Sequence record: NZ_CP104589.1
DNA from: a plasmid
Reading direction: 5' to 3' (one strand)
DNA: 64,000 nucleotides
Part shown: in pieces, positions 4,273 to 23,920 of the stretch
How the letters are laid out: every line of letters begins with the position of its first letter
Position numbering within the stretch: the first letter of the stretch is position 1
Program-made: the position numbers and the translations under genes
Notes under the pieces: generated by a model
Told to the model about the DNA's origin: nothing
Databases searched by the model: none
What the model saw: the letters and a program-made list of their open reading frames with translations, nothing else

Positions 4273-4297
4273 GGCCGCCTCCGGGCGGCCTTTCTTC
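4273..4297 (+). terminator. intrinsic terminator after HU gene
   Basis: GGCCGCC-TCC-GGGCGGCC hairpin followed by TTTCTT. Confidence 0.5.
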
Positions 4298-4314
4298 AAG
4301 GCAAGGAAACGCGC

Positions 4315-4722
4315 ATGGAATCAAGAACCATTGGTGCAGCTGAGGTCGCGCAGAAGATCGAGGCTGAAAACGCGAAGGTGAAAGAGCGGCTGGCCGCTGG
4401 TATCCCAGCATTGATGCGTCTGGTGAAGGTGGCGCTGAGCGATACAGGGCAGTCTCGCGTATGTGGGCGCTTCCTGCTTGGGCTCTACAATGGTGGGTAT
4501 TACCGATTCGACCTGACTGACTTCCGCTCCCTCGATACAGAGCTGTTCGAGGACTGCTTGTCGGTCTTGAAGATGGATGCCAACCCCATTCGCGAAGTTC
4601 ACCGGCTGATCGAAGACGGTGATGCTGTGTTCCACCGCTTGCGCATGTATTGGGCTAGCGAGGAAGAGGCGGCAGGCTTTACAGAATCGGATCGTGTTGC
4701 ATGGAGCCAGGGTCGTGTCTAA
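4315..4722 (+). CDS. hypothetical protein
   Basis: 135-aa ORF. Confidence 0.45.
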   Translation: MESRTIGAAEVAQKIEAENAKVKERLAAGIPALMRLVKVALSDTGQSRVCGRFLLGLYNGGYYRFDLTDFRSLDTELFEDCLSVLKMDANPIREVHRLIEDGDAVFHRLRMYWASEEEAAGFTESDRVAWSQGRV

Positions 4723-7730: not shown

Positions 7731-7931
7731 ATGCCCCAAGCTACCGCCCCCATTATCAGCCGCGGCACCTTGATCGCTGCGCTCATTCTGTTTCTGGCGG
7801 GCGCTGCAACCGGCGCTGCAATAACGATCTGGCGGGCTGAGCCTGCGGCGAGCGAGGCTGATGAGGCCAAGGATGAGCGCTACATTCCGAAGCGCAATCG
7901 GGTCTTCCCTCGTCGGGTCGATGTCGTCTAA
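7731..7931 (+). CDS. small membrane protein
   Basis: 66 aa, one TM segment. Confidence 0.3.
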   Translation: MPQATAPIISRGTLIAALILFLAGAATGAAITIWRAEPAASEADEAKDERYIPKRNRVFPRRVDVV

Positions 7932-8219
7932 ACGCAAATTTGCGGTGCGGCCTCTTGCCCTGCCGCAATAGCCCGGGCATCATAGTCGTGCGCAAGCTGT
8001 GCGCTAAACAGCTCAAGTTCTCTTGCAGGCGTGTCAACGTCGAGCAAATCAAGACGCACCAATCGGTGCAACTCCAGAATCATTCACCCATGCATGTGCA
8101 TAGGTGTTTGTTCCGCGTCTAACGCGGGTCGAAGCTGACGACTCATTCAGTTCAATAAAGCCCTTGCGGGGAAATCTCCGTAAGGGGGATTTCTCCGCTT
8201 CAATATCTGGAGTAGAGAA

Positions 8220-8573
8220 ATGGAAAAGTCTGTCATTAACCTGACTAAGTTCAAAGCAACCGCAGAGCTGGAGCGTTTCGGCGTCCGTGATCTGTCGAGC
8301 TGGAAGGAATTCCAGGAGATTCGCAATCTTCTGTTTTTTCCAACGCCTCCTACCCAAGACATTGTTGCCACCCGCGTTGAGCGGCTCGGTGCAATTGCCT
8401 TGAAGGAAGCACAAAAAACTGGTTCCGATAGCGTCCTTGTGAGCTGTCCGCCATGGATGATGCAGGCCCTGTGCAGCGAGTTGGTTTATCTCAACTTGAA
8501 GCCAGTTGTCAGTTTCACCAAAAAGACCAATGAAGAAGGCTTGTCCGTCATCAGTCTGGTCGCTGCTGCTTAA
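8220..8573 (+). CDS. hypothetical protein
   Basis: 117 aa; preceded by a hairpin plus anti-SD/SD module. Confidence 0.45.
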   Translation: MEKSVINLTKFKATAELERFGVRDLSSWKEFQEIRNLLFFPTPPTQDIVATRVERLGAIALKEAQKTGSDSVLVSCPPWMMQALCSELVYLNLKPVVSFTKKTNEEGLSVISLVAAA

Positions 8574-8671
8574 TTAAATCAGCAACACAACAATCAACCC
8601 ATCGGGGAAAACTTCCCCTATGGGAGTTCTCCTTTCTGGGTTTCAACGCTTTTGAGAAAGGAAAACTAACC

Positions 8672-9661
8672 ATGCAATTCAATACCAAAGTAGCAATGAA
8701 GAACTTCGGCTTTAACACTGAGGCAACTGCACCAGGGTTTGCGCCGAATCATTCGTTCATGCAGCACGTTCCACCGGTTAAGCCGTACTTCTTCCGGAAG
8801 TCTCTGCTGAGTCCGTTTATGAGCTGGCTGTTTGTCCCCGCTGGGGATAGCTGCTTGTTGGTCGGTCCCACCGGCTCGGGTAAGTCTTCCATCGTGGAGC
8901 AAACCTGCGCTCGGCTGGCATGGCCCTGCCTCACCGTCTCGGCTCATAGCCGGATGGAGATGCCGGAGCTGACTGGCTACAACCTGCCTTACACCGACCC
9001 CGTGTCTGGTGACCTGAGCACGAAATTCGTGGACGGGCCGCTGACCAAGGCCATGCGCGAAGGGTTTGTGTTCGTCCTCGACGAATACGACACCCTGGAC
9101 CCGGCTGTCACGGTAGGCCTCCATGCTGTTATGGAAGGTCGACCACTGGTGATCGCAGAAAACAATGGTGAAGTGATTCATCCTCACGCCAATTTCCGTT
9201 TTGTCGCTTGCGGCAACACGGCGGGGCAGAGTGATGAGTCTGGGGTCTATGCGGCAACCATGCAGCAGAACCTCGCATCCCTCGACCGCTTCCGCGTGTT
9301 TGAGGTGCCTTACCTGGATAGCGCCGATGAGGTTTCCACAATCGTGGATGCCATCCCGGGCATTCCAAGCGAGATCGTCGAGAAGATGGTGAAGGTCGCG
9401 AATTCAATTCGCCTCCAGCATCAGGGTCACGGCGGCAACTACCTCAGCGTCACGATGTCCACCCGGACATTGCTACGTTGGGCGCGGATCGCCTTCGGAT
9501 ACACCATGTCCGGCCAGGAGAACCCGCTGAAAGTTGCGTTGCAAGAATCGCTGCTTAACCGCTGCGACCGCGTGCAGAAAGTTGCTATCGACAAGATCGC
9601 TGCCAGCGTTTTCGGCACTGATTGGAAGGTAGACGACCTGAAGCAGCAGAACGCTGCGTAA
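8672..9661 (+). CDS. MoxR/CobS-like AAA+ ATPase
   Basis: Walker A GPTGSGKSS, Walker B VFVLDEYD, sensor region; about 330 aa typical of CobS/MoxR. Confidence 0.75.
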   Translation: MQFNTKVAMKNFGFNTEATAPGFAPNHSFMQHVPPVKPYFFRKSLLSPFMSWLFVPAGDSCLLVGPTGSGKSSIVEQTCARLAWPCLTVSAHSRMEMPELTGYNLPYTDPVSGDLSTKFVDGPLTKAMREGFVFVLDEYDTLDPAVTVGLHAVMEGRPLVIAENNGEVIHPHANFRFVACGNTAGQSDESGVYAATMQQNLASLDRFRVFEVPYLDSADEVSTIVDAIPGIPSEIVEKMVKVANSIRLQHQGHGGNYLSVTMSTRTLLRWARIAFGYTMSGQENPLKVALQESLLNRCDRVQKVAIDKIAASVFGTDWKVDDLKQQNAA

Positions 9662-9741
9662 CAAACCAACCCTCTGGGGGAACTTTTCCCCTCGGGGCGA
9701 AGTTCCCCCTTTTTTGCTTTTGAGAAAAGGAGAACTTCGCA

Positions 9742-10908
9742 ATGACTATTCAACAGAACGAGATCAAGATCCTTGATCAGATCCTGCTGGTAGACCTCTC
9801 GGGCATCCACCTGTGGACCGCCCGGAAGAAACTAAAGCCTGAAATGCTGGAGGGAAAAATTCCTCCTGCAAAGCTGGCTTCACTCGGCTCGATGCGTGTT
9901 ATCGACCCGGAGAAGCTCAAGCCGTTTGAGAAAATCAAGCGTCGGGCAACCAGTGTCCTGGAGAACTACGGCATCAAATTCCTGGGCGGCTATGCCATAC
10001 CACAGGAAAAGATCCGTGATGTGGTCGATGAGCTCGAAGCTCTGAAGAACCAGTTCTATGACCTGAAAAACAACTTCATCCCGAACTACGACCGCTGGGT
10101 AACTGAGTGGATCGAGAAGGATTGGGAGCGCCCTGAGTGGCGCGAGGCGATTGCACGTTCGGTAACCCCGAAAGCGCAAGTAGACCAGGGCATCCAGTTC
10201 GGCTATGCGGCTTGCCGTGTTGCTCCGGACGGGGACAAGCACCTGAGTCAAACCCTCGGGAGCCAAGTTCGCGGCCTGTCCGATCAGCTCTACGCTGAAA
10301 CGGCAGAAACCGCTGAGCGCCTGATGGACACCGGCTTGGCCACTCGTGGTCATGTCACCCAGACGACGCTCAATACTGTGCGCAAGATGAACACCAAGCT
10401 GAAAGGCCTGATGTTCCTCTCCGGCGATGTGAAGGCCTTGGCCGACTACATCGACGAGTTGCTGGCGTCCCTGCCTAAATCGGGGGTCGTCAATGGCTCG
10501 CAGTACAACCAGGTGGTCACGCTGGTGTCGACGCTCTCGGAAGAGGACTCGATTCGCCGTTTGATCAAGAACCTCAGCAAAGCCAATGGTGCAGAAGCAC
10601 CTGAGGCTGAAGTCGAGGAGCAAGCCCAGGAAGAGGTCATTCATGTCCAGCAACCCGCTGAGCCTGAAGCACCTGAGCCTGTAGTCGAAACTGTGGTGGA
10701 AGAAATTCCCCTCGATGCGCAAACGGTGGATGAGGAGGAGCTGGCCAGCATGGCAGTACCTGCAGATCCATTTGCTGTCGTTAATGAGGTACCGACCGCA
10801 CTGGAACAACCAGAGCCAGAGCCTGCAGCTGCAGTTCTCGAAGAGCTGGTGATTCCACAACCAACCCCGGTCAGCAGCGTTGTCGCCCACGGCGTCTTCA
10901 GCTTCTGA
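9742..10908 (+). CDS. hypothetical protein between the AAA+ and vWA genes, acidic C-terminus
   Basis: 388-aa ORF. Confidence 0.5.
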   Translation: MTIQQNEIKILDQILLVDLSGIHLWTARKKLKPEMLEGKIPPAKLASLGSMRVIDPEKLKPFEKIKRRATSVLENYGIKFLGGYAIPQEKIRDVVDELEALKNQFYDLKNNFIPNYDRWVTEWIEKDWERPEWREAIARSVTPKAQVDQGIQFGYAACRVAPDGDKHLSQTLGSQVRGLSDQLYAETAETAERLMDTGLATRGHVTQTTLNTVRKMNTKLKGLMFLSGDVKALADYIDELLASLPKSGVVNGSQYNQVVTLVSTLSEEDSIRRLIKNLSKANGAEAPEAEVEEQAQEEVIHVQQPAEPEAPEPVVETVVEEIPLDAQTVDEEELASMAVPADPFAVVNEVPTALEQPEPEPAAAVLEELVIPQPTPVSSVVAHGVFSF

Positions 10909-10991
10909 TCTGACCCATACACCCCGCCTGGGAGCAAACCTCCCAGCTGGGGGGTTTCTCCGTCTGGCGGTGGCGAGAAAGGAGAAACGAT

Positions 10992-12941
10992 ATGGCTAAA
11001 TCACTGATGGGCACCCTTCCGATCTACTGCCAACACCTGTCCGAGCAAACCGGCGTTCAGGTGGTTGTAGAGGGCAAGGTCGCCAGTACAAACGGCAAAC
11101 GAGTGACTGTCCCCTTCACAGAGGATGATCTTCAACTGTCATTCGGCTACGTCGCCCACGAAACCAGTCATGTTCGCAACACCGACATGGCCGTTTTCAA
11201 AGGCACTGTGCGAAACCCGTTCCGCAAGAATTTGCTGAACATCCTGGAAGACATCCGCATCGAGCGGTTGTCGATGGATCAGTACCCGGGCACCGAGGAA
11301 GATATTCGGTACCTGAACCGCAAGGTTCTGCTCGATCCGTTCAAGCCTGAGCATGTCGCCCAGGCCCAGCCAATCCACATCATCCACAACGCACTGCTCT
11401 ACGGCACCTACTGGAAACTCCAGGAGCCGCAGTTGGAAGTGCCGGCCAAAGCCTATCTCGAAGCACTCGAAGCCCTCCTGGGCCAAGAGCTTGCCGACAA
11501 GATCATGGCCAAGGCGCTGCAGACCCTGAAGTGCGAAAACACTGAGGAGGTGCTGCAGCTGGTTGACGCAATCATTGCGCTGCTTCCTTCCGAGGAAGAT
11601 GAGCCGCAACAGCCCGATGGCGAGCCTGAACAAGGTGAGGAGGAGGGCGAGCAAGGTGAGCAGTCTCAATCTGGTGATGATGGCCAGGGCGATGGCAGCG
11701 ACACCTCCGACACTGGTGAAGATCAGTCGCCGGACAGCAATGAAGGTGAGCAAGACGGAAGCCAAGGCCAGTCTGGTAGCTCGGATGCAGACTCTTCGGA
11801 GGATGCGGACGGTGACCAGGATGGACAAGGCACCGAGGGTAAAGGCGAAGAAAACGGGAAACCGGATTCCAAGCAGAAATCCTCGTCTGGAAGCCAAGGC
11901 GATAGCCAAGGCGACCAATCCGACGATGCCCAGGGCGGTGACGAAAGCACTGACGAGGGTGGCTCCGCTAACGCACAAGGCAAACCATCTCCGCAAGGCG
12001 GTGGCCAACCTGGTGATCAACAAGGGGGCGCTCCACAGAACCTGCGAGAGCAGGCGATGAATGCCACCGAGGATGACCTGAAAGGGCTCATCAGCGAGGT
12101 AGGGGATGCAGCTGCTGAACTCCTGGGCCGCAAGGCTCAGCGGGAACATCACGCCGTCACACCCTTCCCCCTGGCAGGGAGATCCATTCGATGCTCCGGC
12201 GAAGCTTCAATGCGCCGGGTTCAGCTTGGTATGGAGCACTCTGCAGGTCTTCGGCAGATCCTCAATGGTCTGCTGCAGGCTCAAGTGAATTGCCGGGTAC
12301 AGCTCAAGCGTCAAGGTAAGCGGATCGACACATCGCGAATTGCCATGATGAAAAGTGGTGAGACACGGGTGTTCCGTAACAAGGCTCGTGCCGAGCGCCA
12401 GTCTGCCGCCATTCAGTTCCTCTTCGACAAGTCGGGGAGCATGGATAGTGCGATGGATCAAGCAGAGGCGGCCCTGTATGCCGTGCTACGCAGCTTGGAA
12501 GGGCTGCCCCTGGTAACAACAGGGGCGATGTCATTCCCAGGCTCAAATAGCGCACCAGGCGGCTGCTGTGACCTGATCAAACGCTCAACCGAGAGATTGG
12601 GTGCGGCTGTTGAAAAGGGTGGCTTTGGTGCTCTTTCGGCCGGCGGTACACCAATGGCACCGGCGATCTGGCCGGCTGCTATTGAAGTGCTCCGAGCTAA
12701 AGGCGAGCGCAAGGTGCTTTTCGTGATCACTGATGGGGAACCTAATAGTGGTACCGAGGGCTACTGCAAAGAGCTGTTTGAGCGGTGTGAAGCATCAGGG
12801 ATTGAGGTAGTTGGCCTTGGATTCGGTAAGGCCAATGAATACATCCTGAAGCACATCTTCAAGAAATACGTTGCTGTCGGTTCAGTGAGCAATTTGAAAG
12901 CGGCCCTCTTCGGGGTTGTTCGAGAAGCACTCACCGCCTGA
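10992..12941 (+). CDS. CobT-like protein: N-domain, long acidic low-complexity region, C-terminal vWA domain
   Basis: About 150 aa of D/E/G/S/Q-rich repeats; C-terminal MIDAS-like motif FLFDKSGSMD and ITDGEP. Confidence 0.7.
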   Translation: MAKSLMGTLPIYCQHLSEQTGVQVVVEGKVASTNGKRVTVPFTEDDLQLSFGYVAHETSHVRNTDMAVFKGTVRNPFRKNLLNILEDIRIERLSMDQYPGTEEDIRYLNRKVLLDPFKPEHVAQAQPIHIIHNALLYGTYWKLQEPQLEVPAKAYLEALEALLGQELADKIMAKALQTLKCENTEEVLQLVDAIIALLPSEEDEPQQPDGEPEQGEEEGEQGEQSQSGDDGQGDGSDTSDTGEDQSPDSNEGEQDGSQGQSGSSDADSSEDADGDQDGQGTEGKGEENGKPDSKQKSSSGSQGDSQGDQSDDAQGGDESTDEGGSANAQGKPSPQGGGQPGDQQGGAPQNLREQAMNATEDDLKGLISEVGDAAAELLGRKAQREHHAVTPFPLAGRSIRCSGEASMRRVQLGMEHSAGLRQILNGLLQAQVNCRVQLKRQGKRIDTSRIAMMKSGETRVFRNKARAERQSAAIQFLFDKSGSMDSAMDQAEAALYAVLRSLEGLPLVTTGAMSFPGSNSAPGGCCDLIKRSTERLGAAVEKGGFGALSAGGTPMAPAIWPAAIEVLRAKGERKVLFVITDGEPNSGTEGYCKELFERCEASGIEVVGLGFGKANEYILKHIFKKYVAVGSVSNLKAALFGVVREALTA

Positions 12942-13013
12942 TCAAACAAAAACCATTCCCAGTGGGGGCTAACCCCTACTGGGGGAGGCCTCCGTCTGGT
13001 GAAGGAGGCCTAA

Positions 13014-13424
13014 ATGGAAAATCTTGCTTTGGCTACTCCCCTCTTCGACTTGTTTGGAGAAGAGGTAATCATCCAGCGGCGTTCTTTCGAGCGTCGGCCA
13101 CGGCGAAAGCCTGCTCCCATCCAGGGGCAGGTTCAGCTGGGGTTCTTGGACATCCTTGAGATGTCTGAGACTGAACTTGAGCAGATGCGTGCCAACGATG
13201 AAATCACTGACGATTACATCGACTGGCTCCGGGAATACATCCTCAAGATGACGCTTCGCCAGATCCTTCACCCTCAGGTGAGCATGGAAAACTGGTGGGA
13301 TGGCGTTATCTGGATGCTCTCGGATGACAACCATCCGTTCGGTTTCAAAGTCTGCTGCAACGCTGCAGGCGCTGATCACGAGGATGTCCGCGAGGGCGTT
13401 CGCAGGATCATGCGTCGCAACTAA
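13014..13424 (+). CDS. hypothetical protein
   Basis: 136-aa ORF. Confidence 0.45.
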   Translation: MENLALATPLFDLFGEEVIIQRRSFERRPRRKPAPIQGQVQLGFLDILEMSETELEQMRANDEITDDYIDWLREYILKMTLRQILHPQVSMENWWDGVIWMLSDDNHPFGFKVCCNAAGADHEDVREGVRRIMRRN

Positions 13425-13498
13425 ACCAAAAAGCCCGCAGGGGGAAAGCCCCTTGCGGGCTTTCTCCGTTTTCGGGCACTACAAACGGAGAAATAATC

Positions 13499-14382
13499 AT
13501 GGCTTTTCAATCATCTGTTCTGTCCTACCCAGACCGCGGCCATTGGGGTAATTCCCGGTACCGTGGCAACTGCACAGGCCACATCATCAAGGACTTCTTC
13601 GGCACTTACATGAAGCGCCAGGATGGCCTCTGTGTGGACCCAAGCATTGGCGGTGGAACGAGCGTCGATGTGGCGCGAGAGATGGGCCTTCGCTTTATTG
13701 GCACCGACCTGCATCAGGGCTTCAACCTGCTCGTAGACGACCTTGCGTCGTTCTGCGGGGAGGAAGCAGCTGCAGTTTGGTGGCACCCACCGCGACGATG
13801 CAGGCCTACAGCGGCTCGCAGTGGGGTGAGGAGGCGAATAAGTGGGATATGTCGAGGATGAGCATGCAGGACTTCACTGAAGCCCTGGAGCTGGCCTTGA
13901 TGAACATTCACGATGCCACCGAGAAAGGGGGTGTTTACGGAATTTTGATGGGGAATCTGAGACGAGCTGGCGAATATTACAACCTGTCTTCCCTCGTGGA
14001 GCGGGTTGCGCCTGGCAAGTTGATAGATGAGCTGATCAAGGTTCAACACAATTGTGTGTCGGACTCACGGACGTATCGAGGCAACCTGGTCCGTGTGGCA
14101 CACGAAAAATTGCTTGTATTCAGAAAGCTGCAGGCCTCCCTGTTTTTGCTGGGGACTATGCAGCGGCGGGCTGAAGCCATGACAGGTATCACCTGGCGGG
14201 CAGCGGTTCGCAGGGTGCTCCAAGGCAACAAGACCCTTCACCTGAAGGAAATCAATGCTGCGGTTGAGCCCTTCGCGAAGACCAAAAGCAACAACCATTG
14301 GGCGGCAAAGGTGCGCCAGGTTCTGCAGGACGAGCGTTATTTCGTCCGTGTTGAACCAGGTGTGTACCGCCTCGCTGCCTAA
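13499..14382 (+). pseudogene. possible frameshifted gene; N-part carries an N6/N4-MTase-like SAM motif
   Basis: ORF 13499-13861 contains VDPSIGGGTSVDVAREMGLRFIGTDL (FxGxG motif I-like). It then runs into Arg-rich out-of-frame-looking sequence, while an overlapping frame opens at 13777 and runs to 14382. Confidence 0.35.
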
Positions 14383-14461
14383 ACCTCCCAGCCGGGAGAT
14401 ACCACCCAAGAGGGGCCATCCCTCTTGGGCTGGCTCCTTTCTCAGTGAGTAAGGAGAAATC

Positions 14462-15451
14462 ATGAATAACCAAGCTGCTGCACCGCTGATGCCGTTCCGT
14501 GTCTACCTGCTTGAACAGGACACTGAGGGGTTCAGCGAAACGATTTTCATCGCTCACGCCGAGGATATGGCTCATGCCATTGAGCAGGCGCGCAATGCTT
14601 ACCCGGGCTGTAGCGTGAACTGGATTGGCTCCCATGGGGCTAACTGGTTTCTCGCTCAAGGTCAGGCTGAGCATGTAGCGATGGATGAGGACGGGGAGTG
14701 GGGATTCATTATCCGCTTCGACGTTCCAGAAGACGTTGAAGATGAATGTGAGCTCGATGACTACAGCTACAGGGTCGAAGAGTGGCGGGGTGGCGACATC
14801 GTGGATACCTACGATGCTCCAACCTACCAGGCCGCTCGTGAGTGGATCTCGCGGGAACACCGAGGACATTGCTCAAGCCGTTACAGCTTGGCCGCCCTGT
14901 GCGACCTCTGGAACGAACTGAGTGATACCCCGGTAACCGATGGCGGCTACCTGGACCAAGCCTTCCTGTTCTTCCCTCGTGGCGTACATCGCGAAGAAGT
15001 CTGGCACTGGTTCGAGTCTGTGAATCCAGCCTTCAAGGCAGGTGAAGCAGGTGGCTTTATCGGGGGTGATCATCCGTACCGCTCAGCAAATCGGGAGCAG
15101 TCGACGACCGATACCAAACGAGAGGCGTTTATCCGGGAATCGGTTGCCGATATCCCGCCCGTGCCCTGTGAGTTTCAGAAGGGGGACGTGGTGACGGTGC
15201 TCAACGGTATGGGAGTCGAAATCAAGGGGAAAAGAATCCTGGGATTTGTTCGGGAGATTGACCCTGATTGGCGACCGAAAGCGTTCGTCTACCTGGATTG
15301 GGACTGCTACTGGTTCCCGGTTGAAGTAGAGAGGCTGACCCTGGAGAGCCAGGACCTTTGTTCGTCCTGCAACTCACCAGCAGAAAACATCATCGGGTGT
15401 CCCGATGGTGCCGAGCTGTGCTCGCAGTGCTTCGATAGCTCGAACCACTGA
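14462..15451 (+). CDS. hypothetical protein with C-terminal Cys cluster
   Basis: 329 aa; C-term CSSCNSPAENIIGCPDGAELCSQC. Confidence 0.5.
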   Translation: MNNQAAAPLMPFRVYLLEQDTEGFSETIFIAHAEDMAHAIEQARNAYPGCSVNWIGSHGANWFLAQGQAEHVAMDEDGEWGFIIRFDVPEDVEDECELDDYSYRVEEWRGGDIVDTYDAPTYQAAREWISREHRGHCSSRYSLAALCDLWNELSDTPVTDGGYLDQAFLFFPRGVHREEVWHWFESVNPAFKAGEAGGFIGGDHPYRSANREQSTTDTKREAFIRESVADIPPVPCEFQKGDVVTVLNGMGVEIKGKRILGFVREIDPDWRPKAFVYLDWDCYWFPVEVERLTLESQDLCSSCNSPAENIIGCPDGAELCSQCFDSSNH

Positions 15452-15552
15452 AACATAACCGGCCTGGGGCAATGCCTCAGGTCATAACCATACCCAACGG
15501 GGGAGAAATCCCCCGGATGGGGCTTCTCCTCCAGGGACGATAGGAGAAGTCG

Positions 15553-15798
15553 ATGAACGCAATCCTCGAAGCTGCGCGTCTCCAAGGTGACGCCGAAATC
15601 ACGCGAAAGGCACTGGCCTGCAGCGGTAAGAAAAAAGTCCACATCTGGGAGCTCGCCAGTGGCGAAGTGATCATGTTGCGTCATGTCCAAGGCGAAGGTT
15701 TCAAGCAGCCGGTAAAGCTGCAAGAGCCTTTGGAACTTGTGGTCGACAGGTTTCGTGAAAAACGAGGCCACCGGGTCATCTCGGCTCAGGTCATCTGA
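15553..15798 (+). CDS. hypothetical protein
   Basis: 81 aa. Confidence 0.45.
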   Translation: MNAILEAARLQGDAEITRKALACSGKKKVHIWELASGEVIMLRHVQGEGFKQPVKLQEPLELVVDRFREKRGHRVISAQVI

Positions 15799-15802
15799 CA
15801 CC

Positions 15803-15830
15803 AGCGCGCCCTCCGGGGCGCTTTTTTTTG
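15803..15830 (+). terminator. intrinsic terminator
   Basis: AGCGCGCCCTCCGGGGCGCT hairpin followed by T8. Confidence 0.7.
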
Positions 15831-15840
15831 CTCGTAATAC

Positions 15841-15868
15841 TTGAGCGCAACACGCCAATCGGTATAAT
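15841..15868 (+). promoter_or_regulatory. sigma70-like promoter
   Basis: TTGAGC-N16-TATAAT. Confidence 0.4.
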
Positions 15869-16163
15869 CGAGCCATTCAAGGCAAAAGCCTTCTGCAACA
15901 CCTCCCCGCGCCTCAGCGCTAAGAATCTTCGCCAAGTGCATGCTGCACTTAGCAAGAGCCTGAACCACCTATGTGGCCAGGCACCCAAAACCACCTATGT
16001 GGTTTTGATCAAGTCAAGTCGTACTTCAATCGACTCAACCAAAAAGCCACAACGCATTGACCCTATGGGTTCTTTTCGTATGTGCGCAAATCAAACCCGC
16101 AGCGGGGATTAACATCCCTGCCGGGTGTTTCTCCGTCTGCACTTTGCTCAATGGAGAAACACA

Positions 16164-16298
16164 ATGAAAATGCTCGTAATCGCTATGGCCGTTGTAATTG
16201 GTGGCATCCAAGTAGGCTTTAAGGCATTCGACGCTGGCGTTGCTTCGGTTGAAAAAACTGAAGTCGCTCAAACCATCAAAGCCCGTCAGGCGCTCTGA
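16164..16298 (+). CDS. small hydrophobic protein (44 aa)
   Basis: ATG preceded by GGAGAAAC SD inside a hairpin module. Confidence 0.35.
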   Translation: MKMLVIAMAVVIGGIQVGFKAFDAGVASVEKTEVAQTIKARQAL

Positions 16299-16359
16299 TT
16301 GAAACTAACCCAGTGGGGAACAATCCTCACTGGGTTGTTCTCGCATCAGGAGCTTGGCC

Positions 16360-16515
16360 ATGATTTATCACAATGCAATCGACGCTATTCGTAGCGCCGA
16401 ATTCTTTGCGTCAAAATCAAATCTTGCTTATGCACTGTACAGTGCTGGCAGTGGCTTTATCGTTGCATGTCTAGTTCACGCCAATGGGCGCGAGTTAGAA
16501 ATAATTAAACCCTGA
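16360..16515 (+). CDS. small protein (51 aa)
   Basis: Preceded by hairpin and AGGAGC. Confidence 0.35.
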   Translation: MIYHNAIDAIRSAEFFASKSNLAYALYSAGSGFIVACLVHANGRELEIIKP

Positions 16516-16571
16516 CGGGAGGTATCCCGTTAGGGCCACCTCTTTGTCATACAAAAACAATGAGGTGAAAA

Positions 16572-16796
16572 ATGTTCAAAAAAGTGTTTATAGATTGGTT
16601 TGTGGACCTACTCAAAGGAGTTGGTGGGAGCTTGTTGGCAGGTGCGCTCGTGTTGATCGTGACCCCTGCTTACGACCCTCTGACCTTTACCTTCACCGTG
16701 GTGGTAGGTGCTATGATGTACATAGCCGCGCTTGTGCTCGGCTTGGTCATGGCAATTCCTGAGAGTCCAGAAGCCAAAGCATCGAAGGATGATTGA
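16572..16796 (+). CDS. small membrane protein (74 aa)
   Basis: Two hydrophobic helices. Confidence 0.4.
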   Translation: MFKKVFIDWFVDLLKGVGGSLLAGALVLIVTPAYDPLTFTFTVVVGAMMYIAALVLGLVMAIPESPEAKASKDD

Positions 16797-16797
16797 A

Positions 16798-16911
16798 ATG
16801 AACATGATCTACGCGGTATCAGGCATCGTCGTTTTCGTCGCCGCAGCTGGAATCATCGGCTACCTGGTAGCTGACCGGCTCGACAAGAAATACGGCACCG
16901 ATCACCCTTAG
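16798..16911 (+). CDS. very small membrane protein (37 aa)
   Basis: ATG overlaps previous stop (TGAAATG); single TM. Confidence 0.25.
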   Translation: MNMIYAVSGIVVFVAAAGIIGYLVADRLDKKYGTDHP

Positions 16912-17027
16912 ATTCAACACGGTTGAGTAGTTACCTGCTCAACCGATAGCTTTCGGCTGGTCATCCCTCGTGGGTGATCCACCAGAGCCCTCTGCCAAGA
17001 GGCCTCCGGGGATCACCCACCAGGAGA

Positions 17028-17255
17028 ATAATGATGACCACCAAGCAAGAATCCTATGCACTGTACTGCCCTGAACTGAAAGAGCTGATGATCGACTCTG
17101 GCCGCACTTTCCGCGTACCAGATCCGATTGCAGCCACAGTCAACCCTGGCAACCTTGACACTCGATTCGTTAAGGCCTGGGCTATGCTCCACAAGCTGAT
17201 TCCTGCCTCCGGGGAAGTTTCTGTCTTGGAAGCGCAGCTCGCTGAGGTGGCGTAA
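17028..17255 (+). CDS. hypothetical protein
   Basis: About 75 aa; AGGAGA SD upstream. Confidence 0.4.
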   Translation: MMMTTKQESYALYCPELKELMIDSGRTFRVPDPIAATVNPGNLDTRFVKAWAMLHKLIPASGEVSVLEAQLAEVA

Positions 17256-17271
17256 GTGCAACCAGCCCCAA

Positions 17272-17300
17272 CCCCGGCAGAACCCCTGCCGGGGTTTTTC
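17272..17300 (+). terminator. intrinsic terminator
   Basis: CCCCGGCAG-AACC-CCTGCCGGGG followed by TTTTT. Confidence 0.7.
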
Positions 17301-17392
17301 TTTGCCTGCAAAAAAGTGGTCACATAAGCGCCCTCTTCGCAGGGGCGTTTCTCTAGCATCAGCGTATTGATCTATACCTGGTGAATTGATCC

Positions 17393-18418
17393 ATGCGCGC
17401 ACGCACCAAGCTCCACCTCAAACGCCTCGCGGTGTCTGTCATTACGGCCCTTCAGCTCAACACTGTTGCGTTTCATGCATGGGCCGACTCGATTGCTGCC
17501 AGCGCAAATCTAGGCCAGCAGACCGCTCGCATTGTTACCCAAGAGTTCGACCCGACAGCTGCTCAGATGACGCTCCAGGATCTATTTCCAGACTTGGTGG
17601 GCGGTGATGTCACAGAGTTAGAGGATGTGTACGGCGACGAGACGAGCACTATGAGCCTCGGCATCCAAGCCAACTCACGGCTTCAGGGTGAGCAATCAAT
17701 GGAGGGCGAGGCTTACCGCACACTCAACGGATCTCTGCAGAAAGTATCGCCTGATCTTTCAAACGACCCGATGTTCAATACGGCAGATAAAGTCCGCGAT
17801 GCTGATTTTATGGCAGGTTTTAAGGAAAACTTTGCCGACTGTAAAAGAACAGACGTATTTGAAGAGGTTACTGGCAGCGCTCATGTAGCAAACTATAAGA
17901 CTTGCGAAAGGGTTGTTGACCAAGGCGGGAATGTAAAATTTATTCACGACTACAAAGTGGGTGTCGTTGAATATGTTTCAGGCCAGCCAAATTATCAATC
18001 ATGTGGTGTGGGCTGCCTGTATATCTGGGTGGGTACAGTAGGCGATAACTACTGGGGCGGCACGTGCCGGATTTTCCAGGAATATACTCGTTTCAGAGTC
18101 ATCAACAAAGAAGCGATAACGTCAGCTGTAATTGAGCGAGCCACATTTGACGATTACTTTCAGATCTACTTTAACGATGACTTGATTTGGACCCACACCC
18201 CGGGAGTTTTCCCGCCTGAGACTGCAGGTCCATGCGAAAGATCGACCAGCTGGAATGTCAATCCAAACCGAAACGTAACAGAACAATTTAAGAGCGCAGA
18301 TGATGTTATCACTTTCAAAACCAGAACATCCGTAACTGGTGGCGGTGAAGGCTATGCTCGGATTCGCATCAACTATGACCCAGCTAAAGCAGTAGTCGAT
18401 AACGGATGGGGCCCAGAA
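17393..18418 (+). CDS. secreted Cys-rich protein, 3'-truncated by transposon insertion
   Basis: N-terminal signal-like segment; many Cys; the frame continues into the transposon IR (18419 onward) before stopping, so the native C-terminus is lost. Confidence 0.45.
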
Positions 18419-18456
18419 GGGGCGAATAGAGAAAACGGAAAAAATCGTACGCTAAG
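18419..18456. repeat. 38-bp terminal IR of Tn21-subfamily transposon (tnpA end)
   Basis: GGGGCGAATAGAGAAAACGGAAAAAATCGTACGCTAAG; 3' half identical to Tn501/Tn1721-type IR (CGGAAAAAATCGTACGCTAAG) and overlaps tnpA stop. Confidence 0.7.
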
Positions 18457-21418
18457 GTTTTCCGGGCAGCCTTAGCGGCCGAAACTTCCCGTCCTCCAGC
18501 CTGCGGCTCTGCCGCCAGACATAATCGCCGGTCAGATTGATGTGCTCCCACCCCAGCGGCGACAGGTATTGCAGCAGCTCACCATCCACCGACTTCCCCG
18601 CATCGCCCATCGCCTGGGTGGCGCGCTCCAAGTACACCGTGTTCCACAACACGATGGCGGCCGTCACCAGGTTGAGGCCACTGGCCCGGTAGCGCTGCTG
18701 CTCGAAGCTCCGATCCCTGATCTCGCCGAGGCGGTTGAAGAACACCGCCCTGGCCAGGGAGTTGCGGGCTTCGCCCTTGTTCAGTCCAGCATGCACGCGC
18801 CGGCGCAGCTCGACGCTTTGCAACCAATCGAGGATGAAAAGCGTGCGCTCGATCCGGCCCAGCTCGCGCAGGGCCACGGCCAGGCCGTTCTGGCGCGGAT
18901 AGCTGCCGAGCTTGCGCAGCATCAGCGAGGCGGTGACCGTGCCCTGCTTGATCGAGCTGGCCAGGCGCAGGATGTCGTCCCAATGGGCGCGGACGTGCTT
19001 GATGTTCAGGGTGCCGCCAACCATTGGGCGCAATGTCGGGTAGTCCTGGACGCTATTCGGAACATACAGCTTGGTTTCTCCGAGGTCGCGGATGCGCGGT
19101 GCGAAGCGGAAGCCCAGCAGGTGCATCAGGGCGAAGACATGATCGGTGAAGCCAGCCGTGTCAGTGTAGTGCTCCTCGATCCGCAAGTCGGACTCGTGGT
19201 ACAGCAGACCGTCGAGCACATAGGTAGAGTCGCGCACGCCGACATTCACCACGCGGGTGCTGAACGGTGCGTACTGGTCGGAGATGTGGGTGTAGAACAG
19301 CCGCCCCGGCTCGCTGCCGTACTTCGGGTTGACGTGGCCGGTGCTTTCGCCTCGACCACCCGCCCGGAAGCGCTGGCCATCGGAAGAAGAGGTCGTGCCG
19401 TCGCCCCAGTGAGCGGCGAAGGTATGACGGTACTGGTGGTTGACCAGCTCGGCCAGGGCCGCCGAGTAGGTTTCGTCTCGGATGTGCCAGGCTTGCAGCC
19501 AGGACAGCTTGGCGTAGGTCAGGCCGGGGCTCGACTCGGCCATCTTGGTCAGCCCGAGGTTGATTGCATCGCCCAGGATCGCTGACAGCAGCAATGTCCG
19601 GTCTTTGGCCTCGGCACCGTCCTTCAGGTGTGTGAAGTGGCGGCTGAAGCCCGTCCAGTCGTCCACGTCCATCAGCAGTTCGGTGATCTTGATGCGCGGC
19701 AGCAAATGGCTGGTCTGGTCGATCAGCGCCTGCGCGGTATTGGGCACCGCGGAATCCAGCGGGGTGATCTTCAGCCCGGACTCGGTGAGGATGGCATCGG
19801 GCAGCTCGTTGTCCTTGGCCAGGCGGGTGACGGTGGCCAGCTGCTCGTCCAGCAGCTGCAAGCGCTCTTCCAGGTACTGGTTGCTGTTCGGGTTGATCGC
19901 CAGGGGCAGAGCCTGCGCATGCTTGAGCGCGGCGAACCTCTCTGCCGGCAGCAGGTAGTCGTCGAAGTCGCGGAACTGCCGCGAGCCCTTGACCCAGATG
20001 TCACCGGAGCGCAGCGCGTTCTTCAGCTCGGACAGGGCGCAGATTTCGTAGAAGCGCCGGTCGAGGCCTTCCGGGGTTATCACTAGCGGCTTCCAGCGCG
20101 GCTTGATGAAGGCGGTGGGCGCATCGGCCGGCACCTTGCGCAGGTTGTAGGCGTTCATCTCGCTCAGGGTCTGCACGGCTGCCAGCACGCCTTGCGCAGC
20201 CGGGGCAGCGCGCAGTTCCAGCACCTCCAGCAAGGCCGGCGTGTAACGGCGCAGAGTGGCGAAGTTCTCGCCGACCAGGTGCAGATGGTCGAAGCCTTCC
20301 GGCCGGGCCAGCAGCTCGGCCTCGCTGACGCTCTCGGTGAACTCGTCCCAGGGAATCACCGCCTCAATGGCGGCATAGGGATCGCTACCGCTTTCCTTGG
20401 CTTCCAGCAGAGCCTGGCCGATCTTCGAGTACAGGCGCACCTTGTCGTTGATCGCCTTGCCCTGCTTCTGGAACTGCTGCTGATGCTTGTGCTTCGCGCT
20501 GCTGAACAGCTTGACCAGGATACGGTCGTGCAGATCGACCAACTCATCAATCACCGTCGCGGTGCTCTCCAGCACCACGGCGGCCAGGGTCGCGTAGCGT
20601 CGCTGCGGCTCGAACTTGCCGAGGTCTTTGGGCGTCATCTGCCCACCCTCGCGGGCCAGCTTGAGCAGGCGGTTCTGGTGGATGTGTCGGCCCAGGCCTT
20701 CGGGCAAGTCCACCAGCTGAAATGTCTTCAGCCGCTCGATGTGTTCGAGCATGTGGCGGGAGTTCGGTTTCAGCGGTGCCTGTCGCAGCCAGGTCAACCA
20801 GGTGATGCTGCTGCCGGCCTTGAGCTTCAACAGCTCGTCCAGCTTGGCCCGATGCGAGTCCGTGAGTGGTTCGACCAGGGCGCGGTAGACTCGGCGATTG
20901 GCCCGCGCAATGGCCTCCGAACAAGCTCGATCAATTACGCTCAACGCCGGCAGAATGCGCCGCTTCTGTCGCAGGCTCTCCAGGGCCTGACCGGCCAGCA
21001 GTAAGCCCTTGTCGGTCTGCTGGGCCAACTCGGTCAGCTCGCGCACCAGGGCGCGGAAGTCGGACAGGCCGAACGGGGCCAGTTGTAGGTAGGTGCGCAG
21101 TTCCTGGGCGTGCTCGCGGCGAGTCACGTCGCGTTCGCCGTACTTCAACCAACTCGCCGGGTCGGCCTGAACTTGCTTGGCCACCCACTGGATGACCGGC
21201 TCGGGCGGCTCGCTGTCGGTGCCCAACGCATAGCCGGGGTAGCGCAGCAGGCTGAGCTGCACCGCGAAGCCCAGGCGGTTGGCGTCGCCGCGCCGCTGGC
21301 GGATCAGCGACAGGTCGGAGTCGTTGAAGGTGTAGTAGCGGATCAGGTCATCCTGGCTTTCCGGCAACGCAAGCAAGGTGTCGCGCTCCGTAGCCGAGAG
21401 AATCGAGCGACGCGGCAT
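18452..21418 (-). CDS. tnpA: Tn21-subfamily (Tn3 family) transposase TnpA
   Basis: 988 aa; starts [21 protein letters not shown] like Tn21/Tn501 TnpA. Confidence 0.9.
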
Positions 21419-23444: not shown

Positions 23445-23510
23445 GATGTTTGATGTTATGGAGCAGCAACGATGTTACGCAGCAGGGCAGTCGCCCTAAA
23501 ACAAAGTTAG
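23445..23510 (+). other. attI1 recombination site
   Basis: ...ATGTTATGGAGCAGCAACGATGTTACGCAGCAGGGCAGTCGCCCTAAAACAAAGTTAG, canonical attI1 3' end immediately before first cassette. Confidence 0.65.
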
Positions 23511-23515
23511 CGCCC

Positions 23516-23920
23516 ATGGAAGGTATCAGCCACATCACGCTTATTGTCCGCGACCTCTCGCGCATGACCACCTTCCTTTGCGATGGTCTCGGTGCGCGAG
23601 AGGTTTATGACAGTGCTGGCCACAATTACTCGCTTTCCCGCGAGAAATTCTTTGTCCTTGGTGGCGTTTGGTTGGCCGCTATGGAGGGAGTGCCGCCATC
23701 TGAGCGCTCCTATCAGCATGTCGCCTTTCGGGTGAGTGAGTCAGATCTTGCCGTATATCAGGCAAGACTTGGGTCGCTGGGCGTGGAGATTCGCCCACCC
23801 AGGCCACGCGTGAATGGAGAGGGGCTGTCCCTGTACTTCTATGATTTTGACAACCATCTGTTTGAGCTGCACACCGGCACATTGGAGCAGCGCCTTGCCA
23901 GGTACGGAGCTGGGCGCTAA
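23516..23920 (+). CDS. fos: Fos-family (FosA/FosC2/FosE-like) fosfomycin thiol transferase cassette
   Basis: 134 aa; HITLIVRDL, YQHVAFRVSESD, LSLYFYDFDNHLFELHTGTL align with FosA metal-binding and K-loop regions; first cassette after attI1. Confidence 0.75.
   Translation: MEGISHITLIVRDLSRMTTFLCDGLGAREVYDSAGHNYSLSREKFFVLGGVWLAAMEGVPPSERSYQHVAFRVSESDLAVYQARLGSLGVEIRPPRPRVNGEGLSLYFYDFDNHLFELHTGTLEQRLARYGAGR

Follow-up and report, generated by a model that had tools for sequence, protein, structure and literature searches.

Structured leaders predicted to sequester the Shine-Dalgarno sequence recur along a plasmid operon and probably gate its translation

In a 64 000-nucleotide stretch of plasmid DNA (sequence record NZ_CP104589.1; hereafter, the window), a run of 13-14 same-strand genes (8158-17255, + strand) raises the question of what is achieved by the GC-rich hairpin and the adjoining pyrimidine tract, complementary to the Shine-Dalgarno (SD) sequence of the next gene, that recur in the leader of one gene after another. 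An earlier note on this DNA named twelve such leaders and held that they share a structure, and all twelve indeed contain both elements. The leaders form a real family, a single conserved, structured cis-regulatory RNA that is confined to this operon. The interpretation that we consider probable, with considerable room for doubt, is that the block is a two-unit operon of an IncP-7-like/MOBH plasmid of the Pseudomonas type, homologous to part of the host-defense-evasion (‘hde') operon of IncC plasmids and SXT elements, and that the repeated module is an operon-wide, cis-acting mRNA gate on translation initiation.

The canonical module consists of an A-rich, G-poor linker, a GC hairpin (H1), a TTCTCC-type anti-SD tract, and a second helix (H2) in which this tract, as the 5' arm, pairs with the SD of the following gene, as the 3' arm. 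H1 has the consensus CCCnnnGGGG-loop-CCCCnnnGGG and is 26-32 nucleotides (nt) long, the gap between H1 and H2 is 0-2 nt, and the predicted stabilities are -13 to -28 kcal/mol for H1 and -8.7 to -19.9 kcal/mol for H2, which ends 1-6 nt ahead of the start codon. The A/C/U/G composition of the 12 nt preceding each H1 is 54/25/14/7%, compared with 21/28/22/29 in the window, and the A-rich linkers lie between the upstream stop codon and H1 (for example, 8574-8597, 12942-12956 and 13425-13431). The linker resembles Hfq (ARN)n sites, Crc CA-motifs or a ribosome standby site, and on the opposite strand it makes a U-rich tail for H1. Ten modules, starting at 8161, 8598, 9670, 10922, 12957, 13432, 14402, 15493, 16095 and 16510, are canonical, with the upstream tract complementary to the SD and paired with it in the predicted fold; the remaining two, at 16307 (degenerate H2) and 16964 (a nested variant), show this pairing in part.

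RNAfold places H1 and H2 side by side in the minimum free energy (MFE) structure of each leader, and for all 12, none of 200 dinucleotide shuffles is equally stable (z from -3.85 to -7.17). A loose, MFE-based scan for a hairpin followed by a paired SD was too noisy, and a strict pattern scan with a shuffle control was used instead; it yields nine matches on the + strand, eight of these within 8598-16572, compared with a mean of ~1.1 in 10 dinucleotide shuffles of the whole window, both strands included. The similarity between leaders of different genes is also captured by a covariance model, R1, that was built solely from 13 orthologues of leader 8598 (set A2) and run against both strands of a 390 kb search space: R1 retrieves nine other, non-orthologous leaders of the window (E = 4e-9 to 0.015), all of them on the gene strand between 8158 and 16574, and has no other + strand match in the window. 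With filters off, a second-round model, R2 (consensus AAACCCacagGGGgAAAaUcCCCcuguGGGGuUUCUCCuUuUgu...aagAAaGGAGAAauaaAAug), gives 10 window matches at E <= 3e-7, leader 16307 at 0.019 and no further match on the window + strand below E = 0.5; these window matches arise in part by construction, so that R1 is the independent test. On the minus strand, the only matches are faint ones that echo the palindromic H1. No model match occurs in an additional 100 kb of backbone taken from two related plasmids, although this DNA includes ~fifty small same-strand genes, and an exact-pattern scan of IMG/VR returns two chance matches inside coding sequence and no model match. A dispersed repeat of the REP/BIME/MITE kinds was considered and rejected, given that the copies occur in this operon only, in one orientation and at a fixed distance from the start codon, and that orthologous copies diverge with their genes. 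Outside the block, at 4273-4315, TTTCTT comes after a terminator-like hairpin (GGCCGCCTCCGGGCGGCC) and pairs with AGGAAA just before a DUF7673 gene; this weak look-alike of the module is matched by neither R1 nor R2.

The leaders, all on the + strand, follow the gene order of the block: a 117-amino-acid (aa) gene, an ATPase, a DUF3150 gene, a VWA gene, a 136-aa gene, an N6/N4-methyltransferase-like gene, a 329-aa gene, an 81-aa gene and five small genes. The leader of the 117-aa first gene (8161-8222; H1 8161-8186, H2 8189-8221, AUG 8220; z -5.27; R1 E=0.003, R2 E=3e-9) is located within a 288-nt 5' region, not between cistrons, and its H2 overlaps the AUG. The leader of the ATPase gene (8598-8674; H1 8598-8624, H2 8625-8667, AUG 8672; z -4.51), the product of which has the AAA_5 and CbbQ_C domains of Pfam and is homologous to vcrx089, provided the seed of R1. 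It is followed by the leaders of the DUF3150 gene (9670-9744; H1 9670-9696, H2 9697-9740, AUG 9742; z -4.19), for which covariation is found on a plain alignment and extends to three strands, as described below; of the VWA (CobT-like) gene (10922-10994; H1 10922-10952, H2 10954-10988, AUG 10992; z -5.14; R1 E=1.6e-4); and of the 136-aa gene (12957-13016; H1 12957-12984, H2 12986-13011, formed by AGGCCTCC:GGAGGCCT, AUG 13014; z -6.06; R1 E=0.015). Next comes the leader of the methyltransferase-like gene, which is frameshifted (13432-13501; H1 13432-13461, H2 13462-13492, formed by TTTCTCCGTTT:AAACGGAGAAA, AUG 13499; z -7.17; R1 E=4e-9). The leaders of the 329-aa gene (14402-14464; H1 14402-14433, H2 14434-14456, AUG 14462; z -4.88; R1 E=0.005) and of the 81-aa gene (15493-15555; H1 15493-15521 with the top GGGGGAGAAATCCCCC, H2 15522-15550, formed by CTTCTCCT:AGGAGAAG, AUG 15553; z -3.85; R1 E=1.7e-5) are followed by that of a 44-aa gene, the first after an internal terminator and promoter-like site (16095-16166; H1 16095-16126, H2 16127-16160, AUG 16164; z -6.17; R1 E=0.003). 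In the degenerate leader of the 51-aa gene (16307-16362; H1 16307-16336, AUG 16360; z -4.08; R2 E=0.019), H1 is good and H2 is nearly lost in the window (-1.9 kcal/mol), whereas the orthologues keep a 7-bp H2 (TTCTCAA:TTGAGGA). The leader of the 74-aa membrane-like gene (16510-16574; H1 16510-16535, H2 16537-16567, formed by CACCTC:GAGGTG, AUG 16572; z -6.58; R1 E=5e-4) has the TGA stop codon of the upstream gene inside the 5' arm of H1. Finally, in the variant leader of the 73-aa gene (16964-17036; hairpin element 16964-17027, AUG 17034; z -5.31), a UCCCU:AGGAGA pairing surrounds a long conserved hairpin (GTGGGTGATCC...GGATCACCCAC), so that the anti-SD lies 5' and the SD 3' of the hairpin. 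The arms of this hairpin (GTGGGTGATCCACCAGAG...GGGGATCACCCAC) are conserved among relatives beyond the needs of pairing; the gene is the last small one of the block and, in relatives, is located upstream of traN.

Comparison with relatives indicates that the leader structure is kept by selection. Modules occupy orthologous positions, on the gene strand only, in 11 loci of GTDB genomes (Pseudomonas, Stutzerimonas, Azotobacter, Aquipseudomonas and a Halothiobacillaceae metagenome-assembled genome; ATPase 66-90% identical at the aa level) and in five plasmids, with 2-8 strict-scan modules per related locus. Compensatory changes in H2, given as 5' arm/3' arm, include AGGCCTCC/GGAGGCCT, GGCCTTC/GGAGGCC and TGGCCTTC/GGAGGCCA in one set, CACCTC/GAGGTG, CCTCGT/GCGAGG and ACTCCTTGT/ACAAGGAGT in another, and CGAAGTTC/GAACTTCG, CGCGATTC/GAATCGTG, GGTGATTC/GAATCACC and GCAGT/ACTGC in the DUF3150 leader. 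Among 77 model-aligned leaders, 92.2% of the cells are paired, compared with 77.7% in shuffles, changes on both sides are found in 16 of the 19 pairs, with 234 double-change cells against 64 expected. The covariation score reaches 0.398, as against 0.141 for shuffled alignments (reached in 0 of 500) and 0.06-0.095 for slid-partner controls. This alignment was fitted to the structure of the model, and the count was therefore redone for the DUF3150 leaders as aligned by MAFFT alone, where H2 scores 0.331 versus 0.179 (0 of 500 shuffles), with 17 double-change cells against 6.1 expected. Thus, the statement of the earlier note that the TTCTCC-type tract pairs with the SD is upheld both by the predicted folds and by the compensatory changes through which the pairing persists; because it persists in this manner, the general idea of systematic sequestration of the ribosome-binding site (RBS) was correct as well.

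The same architecture extends to IncC and Vibrio plasmids. Homologues of the ATPase encoded in IncC and in Vibrio pAQU-like plasmids show 42% identity over 85% of the protein (tblastn), and in the IncC plasmid pIMP-PH114, the gene order AAA, hypothetical, ssb, bet, exo, DUF3150, VWA matches vcrx089-093 onward; the operon in the window lacks ssb, bet and exo, unlike the hde operon of IncC. The IncC and Vibrio leaders, before vcrx089, ssb, bet, exo and VWA, fold into the same H1 and H2 in RNAfold, often with the AUG paired too, and freeing the SD in these leaders costs 2-13 kcal/mol. The earlier note had suggested a covariance-model search of other plasmids, and R2 matches the IncC/Vibrio leaders before exo, ssb, bet and VWA, sequences outside its training set, at E = 8e-7 to 0.04. 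From Vibrio and Enterobacteria to Pseudomonas, the module is retained and shows covariation.

According to Roy et al. 2020 (PMC7498323), the hde operon of the IncC plasmid pVCR94 is polycistronic by reverse transcription PCR (RT-PCR), and the recipient needs its genes to be expressed de novo. Of these, vcrx089-090 act against type I restriction and ssb/bet/exo mend the cuts made by Cas, and the operon allows the plasmid to survive restriction and CRISPR attack on entry to a new host. The same paper mentions, in an aside that points to a supplementary figure, a predicted RBS-sequestering structure before vcrx089 (PMC7498323). The likeness is close, with homologous genes (ATPase 42% identical, DUF3150, VWA) and the same H1 and H2 shape in the IncC leader; the published case, as described in the text of that paper, is one structure for one gene, whereas here, the module precedes almost every cistron and includes a third strand that mimics the SD. 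In the literature searched, the repeated module is nowhere described. The search with Rfam 15, at the gathering threshold for the window and six related loci and by E-value for 7900-17400, produced nothing relevant, only an integron attI/AAC_AAD leader. The remark that no described family with this layout was known accordingly stands with respect to Rfam and has to be qualified with respect to vcrx089.

Does the hairpin stop transcription rather than translation? The earlier note took H1 and the tract after it for a pseudo-terminator and proposed terminator formation and SD sequestration as mutually exclusive outcomes, and here, the evidence points the other way. H1 avoids the anti-SD tract, the two helices share no bases, and they coexist in every MFE structure, so that folding of the 5' untranslated regions supports anti-SD:SD pairing and, except in leader 9670, no mutual exclusion with a terminator. 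In this leader, the sole one with a true alternative, terminator-shaped hairpin, GGGGGAACTT (9676-9685) pairs with AAGTTCCCCC (9700-9709) ahead of T6 at 9710-9715, using the anti-SD. Elsewhere, H1 is followed by a poor U-tract, and only one to three of the 12 hairpins pass a loose terminator pattern (13430 is flagged, 8610 and 9694 in part), the real terminators at 15806 and 17270 being flagged as well. Nor can termination hinge on SD pairing, because it would be decided before the SD is transcribed. It is therefore quite improbable that the H1 hairpins are partial intrinsic terminators or attenuators that grade transcription along the operon. The GC-rich intergenic stems followed by a T-containing tract, the two mutually exclusive folds of leader 9670, one of them ending in T6, and the flagged 13430 do recall Rho-independent terminators and trp-type attenuators, but most tracts, for example, AGTTCTCC, GAGGCCTC and CCACCTCT, are not U-tracts, H1 and H2 are compatible, at least 10 such elements in series would abolish distal expression in an operon whose IncC counterpart is polycistronic by RT-PCR (PMC7498323), and the co-variation with the SD is left unexplained.

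A role in single-stranded DNA (ssDNA), also raised in the earlier note as hairpins of a transfer leading region, is even harder to sustain. The elements would, on this hypothesis, be Frpo-like promoters or priming sites on the strand transferred in conjugation, and the block does encode establishment and anti-defense functions that are typical of early post-transfer expression. The hairpins are, however, only 26-32 nt long, the modules contain no -35/-10 or other promoter-like hexamers, and the sense strand folds better, with 82 G.U pairs against 39 A.C mismatches and an average advantage of 3 kcal/mol over the antisense strand, although the template T-strand would be antisense. With each element also locked to the SD and start codon of its gene, we give this explanation hardly any credence.

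The anti-SD tract has a second potential partner. The leader can be divided into four segments. Segment 1 comprises the 5' arm of H1 together with its loop and resembles the SD with its 3' flank (GGGGAGAAAx); segment 2 is the 3' arm of H1; segment 3 is the anti-SD tract (xTTTCTCC) with a few following bases; and segment 4 is the SD proper (GGAGAAAx), located 3-9 nt upstream of the start codon. When the SD core is barred from pairing, the best fold is usually one in which the anti-SD and the bases after it pair with the 5' arm and the loop of H1, whose 3' arm is looped out. The real alternative in these leaders is thus between 1:2 plus 3:4 (closed) and 1:3, the one open state that can compete, with an anti-SD that co-varies with its alternative partner. 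The mimic tracks the SD, such that GGGGAAAGC occurs with GGAGAAAT-type SDs, GGGGGCT with GGAGGCC and GGGAGGTA with GAGGTG. Because MAFFT kept the G-runs of the 1:3 helix out of register, duplex energies of cognate and swapped partners were compared: the mimic:anti-SD duplex has -11.5 kcal/mol for cognate versus -8.6 kcal/mol for swapped pairs (cognate favored in 8 of 9 groups, p = 0.02), and when the full 5' arm of H1 is paired with the 24 nt that follow H1, the values are -16.2 and -11.6 kcal/mol, respectively (p = 0.027). Covariation in the DUF3150 leader is three-way, with ACTT/AAGT/ACTT, ATC/GAT/ATC and CTGC/GCAG/CTGC.

This tracking bears on a further explanation, that the module serves processing or stability of the mRNA, with H1 as a protective 5'/3' stem-loop, H2 as a second stabilizer and SD pairing of little consequence for translation. 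A stable GC hairpin is present at every cistron boundary after an unstructured A-rich linker, a possible cleavage site, and H1 would lie at or near the 5' end of transcripts from upstream promoters, both of which such a function would lead one to expect. Such a function would account neither for the SD, suitably spaced from the start codon, invariably forming the 3' arm of H2, nor for the co-variation of the anti-SD with SD variants such as GGAGGCC and GAGGTG, nor for the match between the loop of H1 and the SD flank, and accordingly, we rate this hypothesis as unlikely.

The preferred interpretation, the gate on translation initiation, starts from the prediction that, at equilibrium, pairing occludes the SD to more than 99% in 8 of the 12 leaders. 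Initiation reportedly depends on the stability of the RBS hairpin (de Smit and van Duin), and hence these starts should be strongly repressed. Both 1:2 and 3:4 would form at equilibrium and hold translation initiation closed, so that the establishment and anti-defense proteins would be kept poorly translated despite strong transcription of the operon; we infer that occlusion lowers translation in this way and that the 1:3 fold is used in vivo. Opening of H1 or capture of the SD would flip the leader to the 1:3 form, which would probably persist. Three candidate triggers can be envisaged: a 30S subunit may capture a breathing SD, upon which segment 1 would take segment 3 and the mRNA would stay open, as in a ratchet; a ribosome may arrive from the upstream cistron; or a dedicated plasmid-encoded RNA-binding factor may open the leader. 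A change in temperature is a poor candidate, with SD accessibility at most 0.016, and an unpaired probability of the SD core of at most 0.01, across 25-45 C in eight leaders; the pyrimidine tract on the SD recalls RNA thermometers such as ROSE and fourU, but the helices here are far too stable. Leader-peptide attenuation was rejected too, because an AUG-started open reading frame (ORF) that ends just before the main start is found in only 11 of 64 leaders, and only the 8598 group has a semi-conserved AUG. A CsrA/RsmA site was discarded, by inspection only, as the GGA of the mimic is in the stem of H1, not in the loop.

The 1:3 helix is more stable than 3:4 in several leaders, the net cost of the open state is ~5-11 kcal/mol, versus -8.7 to -19.9 kcal/mol for H2 alone, and the MFE structure of the nascent transcript is the 1:3 fold in six of the eight parsed leaders of the window (9670 was unparsed; in its orthologues, all H1 pairs are lost in the nascent-transcript MFE). 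The barrier from open to closed is 14-21 kcal/mol in seven leaders. The second of the above triggers could act as a relay of translational coupling, whereby the upstream ribosome would melt H1, segment 1 would take the anti-SD, and each cistron would depend on the previous one. The stability of 1:3, the high open-to-closed barrier and the location of the upstream stop codon near or inside H1 in some leaders (-6, 7, 8, 8 and 13 nt) are compatible with such a relay; however, the distance from the stop to H1 varies from -6 to 41 nt, and full modules precede first genes without an upstream cistron (8161, 16095 and the promoter-proximal IncC leaders), so that we deem the relay rather improbable, slightly more so than the processing hypothesis.

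The third trigger leads to the base of H1, where CCC:GGG is invariant in 76-77 of the 77 leaders while the adjacent pairs co-vary freely, a pattern that suggests a constraint on the sequence beyond pairing. H1 might, then, be an operator for a trans-acting RNA-binding protein or RNA, encoded by plasmid or host, that stabilizes or opens the closed state and brings about transient translational de-repression in the new recipient, as a counterpart of zygotic induction at the level of translation. This is the least unlikely of the rival explanations, although still an unlikely one, and it is compatible with the gate because it would supply the missing trigger. The invariant AAACCC...GGG base, the A-rich loop and the frequent internal mismatch fit an operator, and there is a precedent at the transcriptional level, the establishment genes of p576 being transiently de-repressed after transfer (PMC6294495), as well as the requirement for de novo expression of hde genes in the recipient (PMC7498323). 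Against it, the small proteins of the block, in profile searches of Pfam, PHROGs and NCBIfam conducted without structure prediction, have no match and offer no candidate factor, and the invariance of CCC/GGG is also explained by a double pairing constraint, since this CCC also has another GGG, located downstream, as its partner in the 1:3 fold.

A more specific version of the gate, which we put forward tentatively and regard as more doubtful than the gate itself, is a three-strand RNA switch with a local lock before every hde cistron of IncC, pAQU-like and IncP-7-like plasmids that would limit translation of the anti-restriction and repair genes to a defined period, for example, in freshly entered plasmids or on fresh transcripts, as set by the ribosome ratchet or an RNA-binding factor. 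SXT/R391 elements are outside its scope because no SXT/R391 sequence was examined. Several points weigh against the gate and the switch alike. All energetics for the leaders of this plasmid are predictions; the large covariation count over 77 leaders leans to structure, given how the alignment was made; and in the ATPase-leader set A2 alone, covariation is weak, because its sequences barely differ. The mimic statistics rest on nine groups with p about 0.02-0.03, 1:3 is not favored in three canonical leaders (13432, 14402 and 16510), and the direct-path barrier from a formed H1 to 1:3 is 14-23 kcal/mol, values that are upper bounds in a pseudoknot-free model and that, being high, make spontaneous switching during transcription doubtful. 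The invariance at the H1 base could reflect protein recognition and not a switch. Finally, locked ribosome-binding sites seem ill suited to genes that act within minutes of plasmid entry, unless the putative opener exists.

Leaders that sequester the SD and leaders with two states are already known; what sets the present family apart is the operon-wide repetition, the SD mimic as a third strand and the link to an establishment/anti-defense operon in a superfamily of plasmids and integrative and conjugative elements that is important in the clinic. In the translational attenuation of ermC and cat, the leader likewise has four segments, with the SD paired in 3:4 at rest, but here, there is no conserved leader peptide and the alternative fold is 1:3, not 2:3. 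Two-state leaders are found in the mRNAs of the type I toxins hok (tac/ucb/dcb), dinQ (PMC5066626) and aapA1 (PMC5416894) and in the MS2 maturation gene (delayed folding). There, as here, the anti-SD has two partners, the SD in the closed state and an upstream SD-like activator in the open state, and the activator is itself locked. Those leaders, however, belong to single genes, and their lock, either a kinetic trap or a long-range 5'-3' interaction, is released by processing or during synthesis, whereas the present lock is local (segment 2), within a unit of ~65 nt that is present in ~12 copies in one operon.

If the gate exists, one mechanism would set both the level and the timing of the whole establishment program and would be one common target for blocking plasmid establishment, which is of some consequence given that multidrug resistance has major vehicles in IncC plasmids and related ones and that a class 1 integron is present in the window itself. 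It would also explain genes that are strongly transcribed yet poorly translated: in the abstract of a 2013 report by Garriss and colleagues, bet and exo of SXT are said to be highly transcribed, with translation under additional strong regulation. The three-strand switch, if real, would amount to a new, family-wide post-transcriptional layer in the control of plasmid establishment. A two-state leader of ~65 nt with natural variants is, moreover, a handy object for the study of SD mimics and anti-SD strands in translation.

Two observations on the counterparts of this operon bear on what surrounds or replaces the module. In pIMP-PH114 (locus L017), a ~45-nt promoter-like repeat (GATAGCTGGTCGCCAAAAACAAACAGCA...) is present three times, at ~9770, 14605 and 18425, each directly upstream of an H1 and H2 leader; it resembles AcaCD-dependent promoters, and if it is one, H1 would be located right at the 5' end of those transcripts. 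The AT-rich Providencia plasmid pPROV280-1 (locus L019, 4636-15990, + strand) has the same operon without the hairpin module and instead carries a repeated leader, TTTTAAATCTATTAA, with 15 matches against 1.2 expected, all on the gene strand and each 10-25 nt before a start codon; this leader may serve a similar function, for example, as a translational enhancer or an operator.

The DNA is ~76% identical to that of MOBH plasmids of Pseudomonas and Stutzerimonas, which also encode HU, MvaT-like and YejK-like nucleoid proteins, a set that we take to represent an IncP-7/pCAR1-like backbone. On the + strand, the block is divided into two transcription units by a canonical intrinsic terminator (15806-15821 plus T8) with a promoter-like site (15841-15868) after it, and another intrinsic terminator (17270-17296) closes it. 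Between the promoter-like site and leader 16095, the palindrome CCACCTATGTGG occurs twice (15965-15976 and 15991-16002, 26 nt apart), and this pair may be an operator. The methyltransferase-like gene (13499-14382) is frameshifted near 13786-13792, such that the counterparts of residues 2-97 and 97-292 in the intact orthologue are encoded in different frames, which could reflect a pseudogene, a sequencing error or a programmed shift. In related plasmids, the block is flanked by helicase, HU and exonuclease genes on one side and by traN on the other. In the window, the ORF that follows the block adjoins a Tn3-family transposase gene, with the class 1 integron farther along: a 360-aa ORF (17393-18475) occupies the place of traN, and its end is overlapped by the 3' end of the 988-aa transposase gene (18455-21418, - strand), so that the tra region appears to be interrupted. 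The attI/AAC_AAD leader of the integron is at 23460-23533 (Rfam RF02912, 74 bits). In one of the related plasmids, NZ_CP027167 (locus L021, 20270-21610, - strand), the backbone includes a gene annotated as iscB, an RNA-guided endonuclease.

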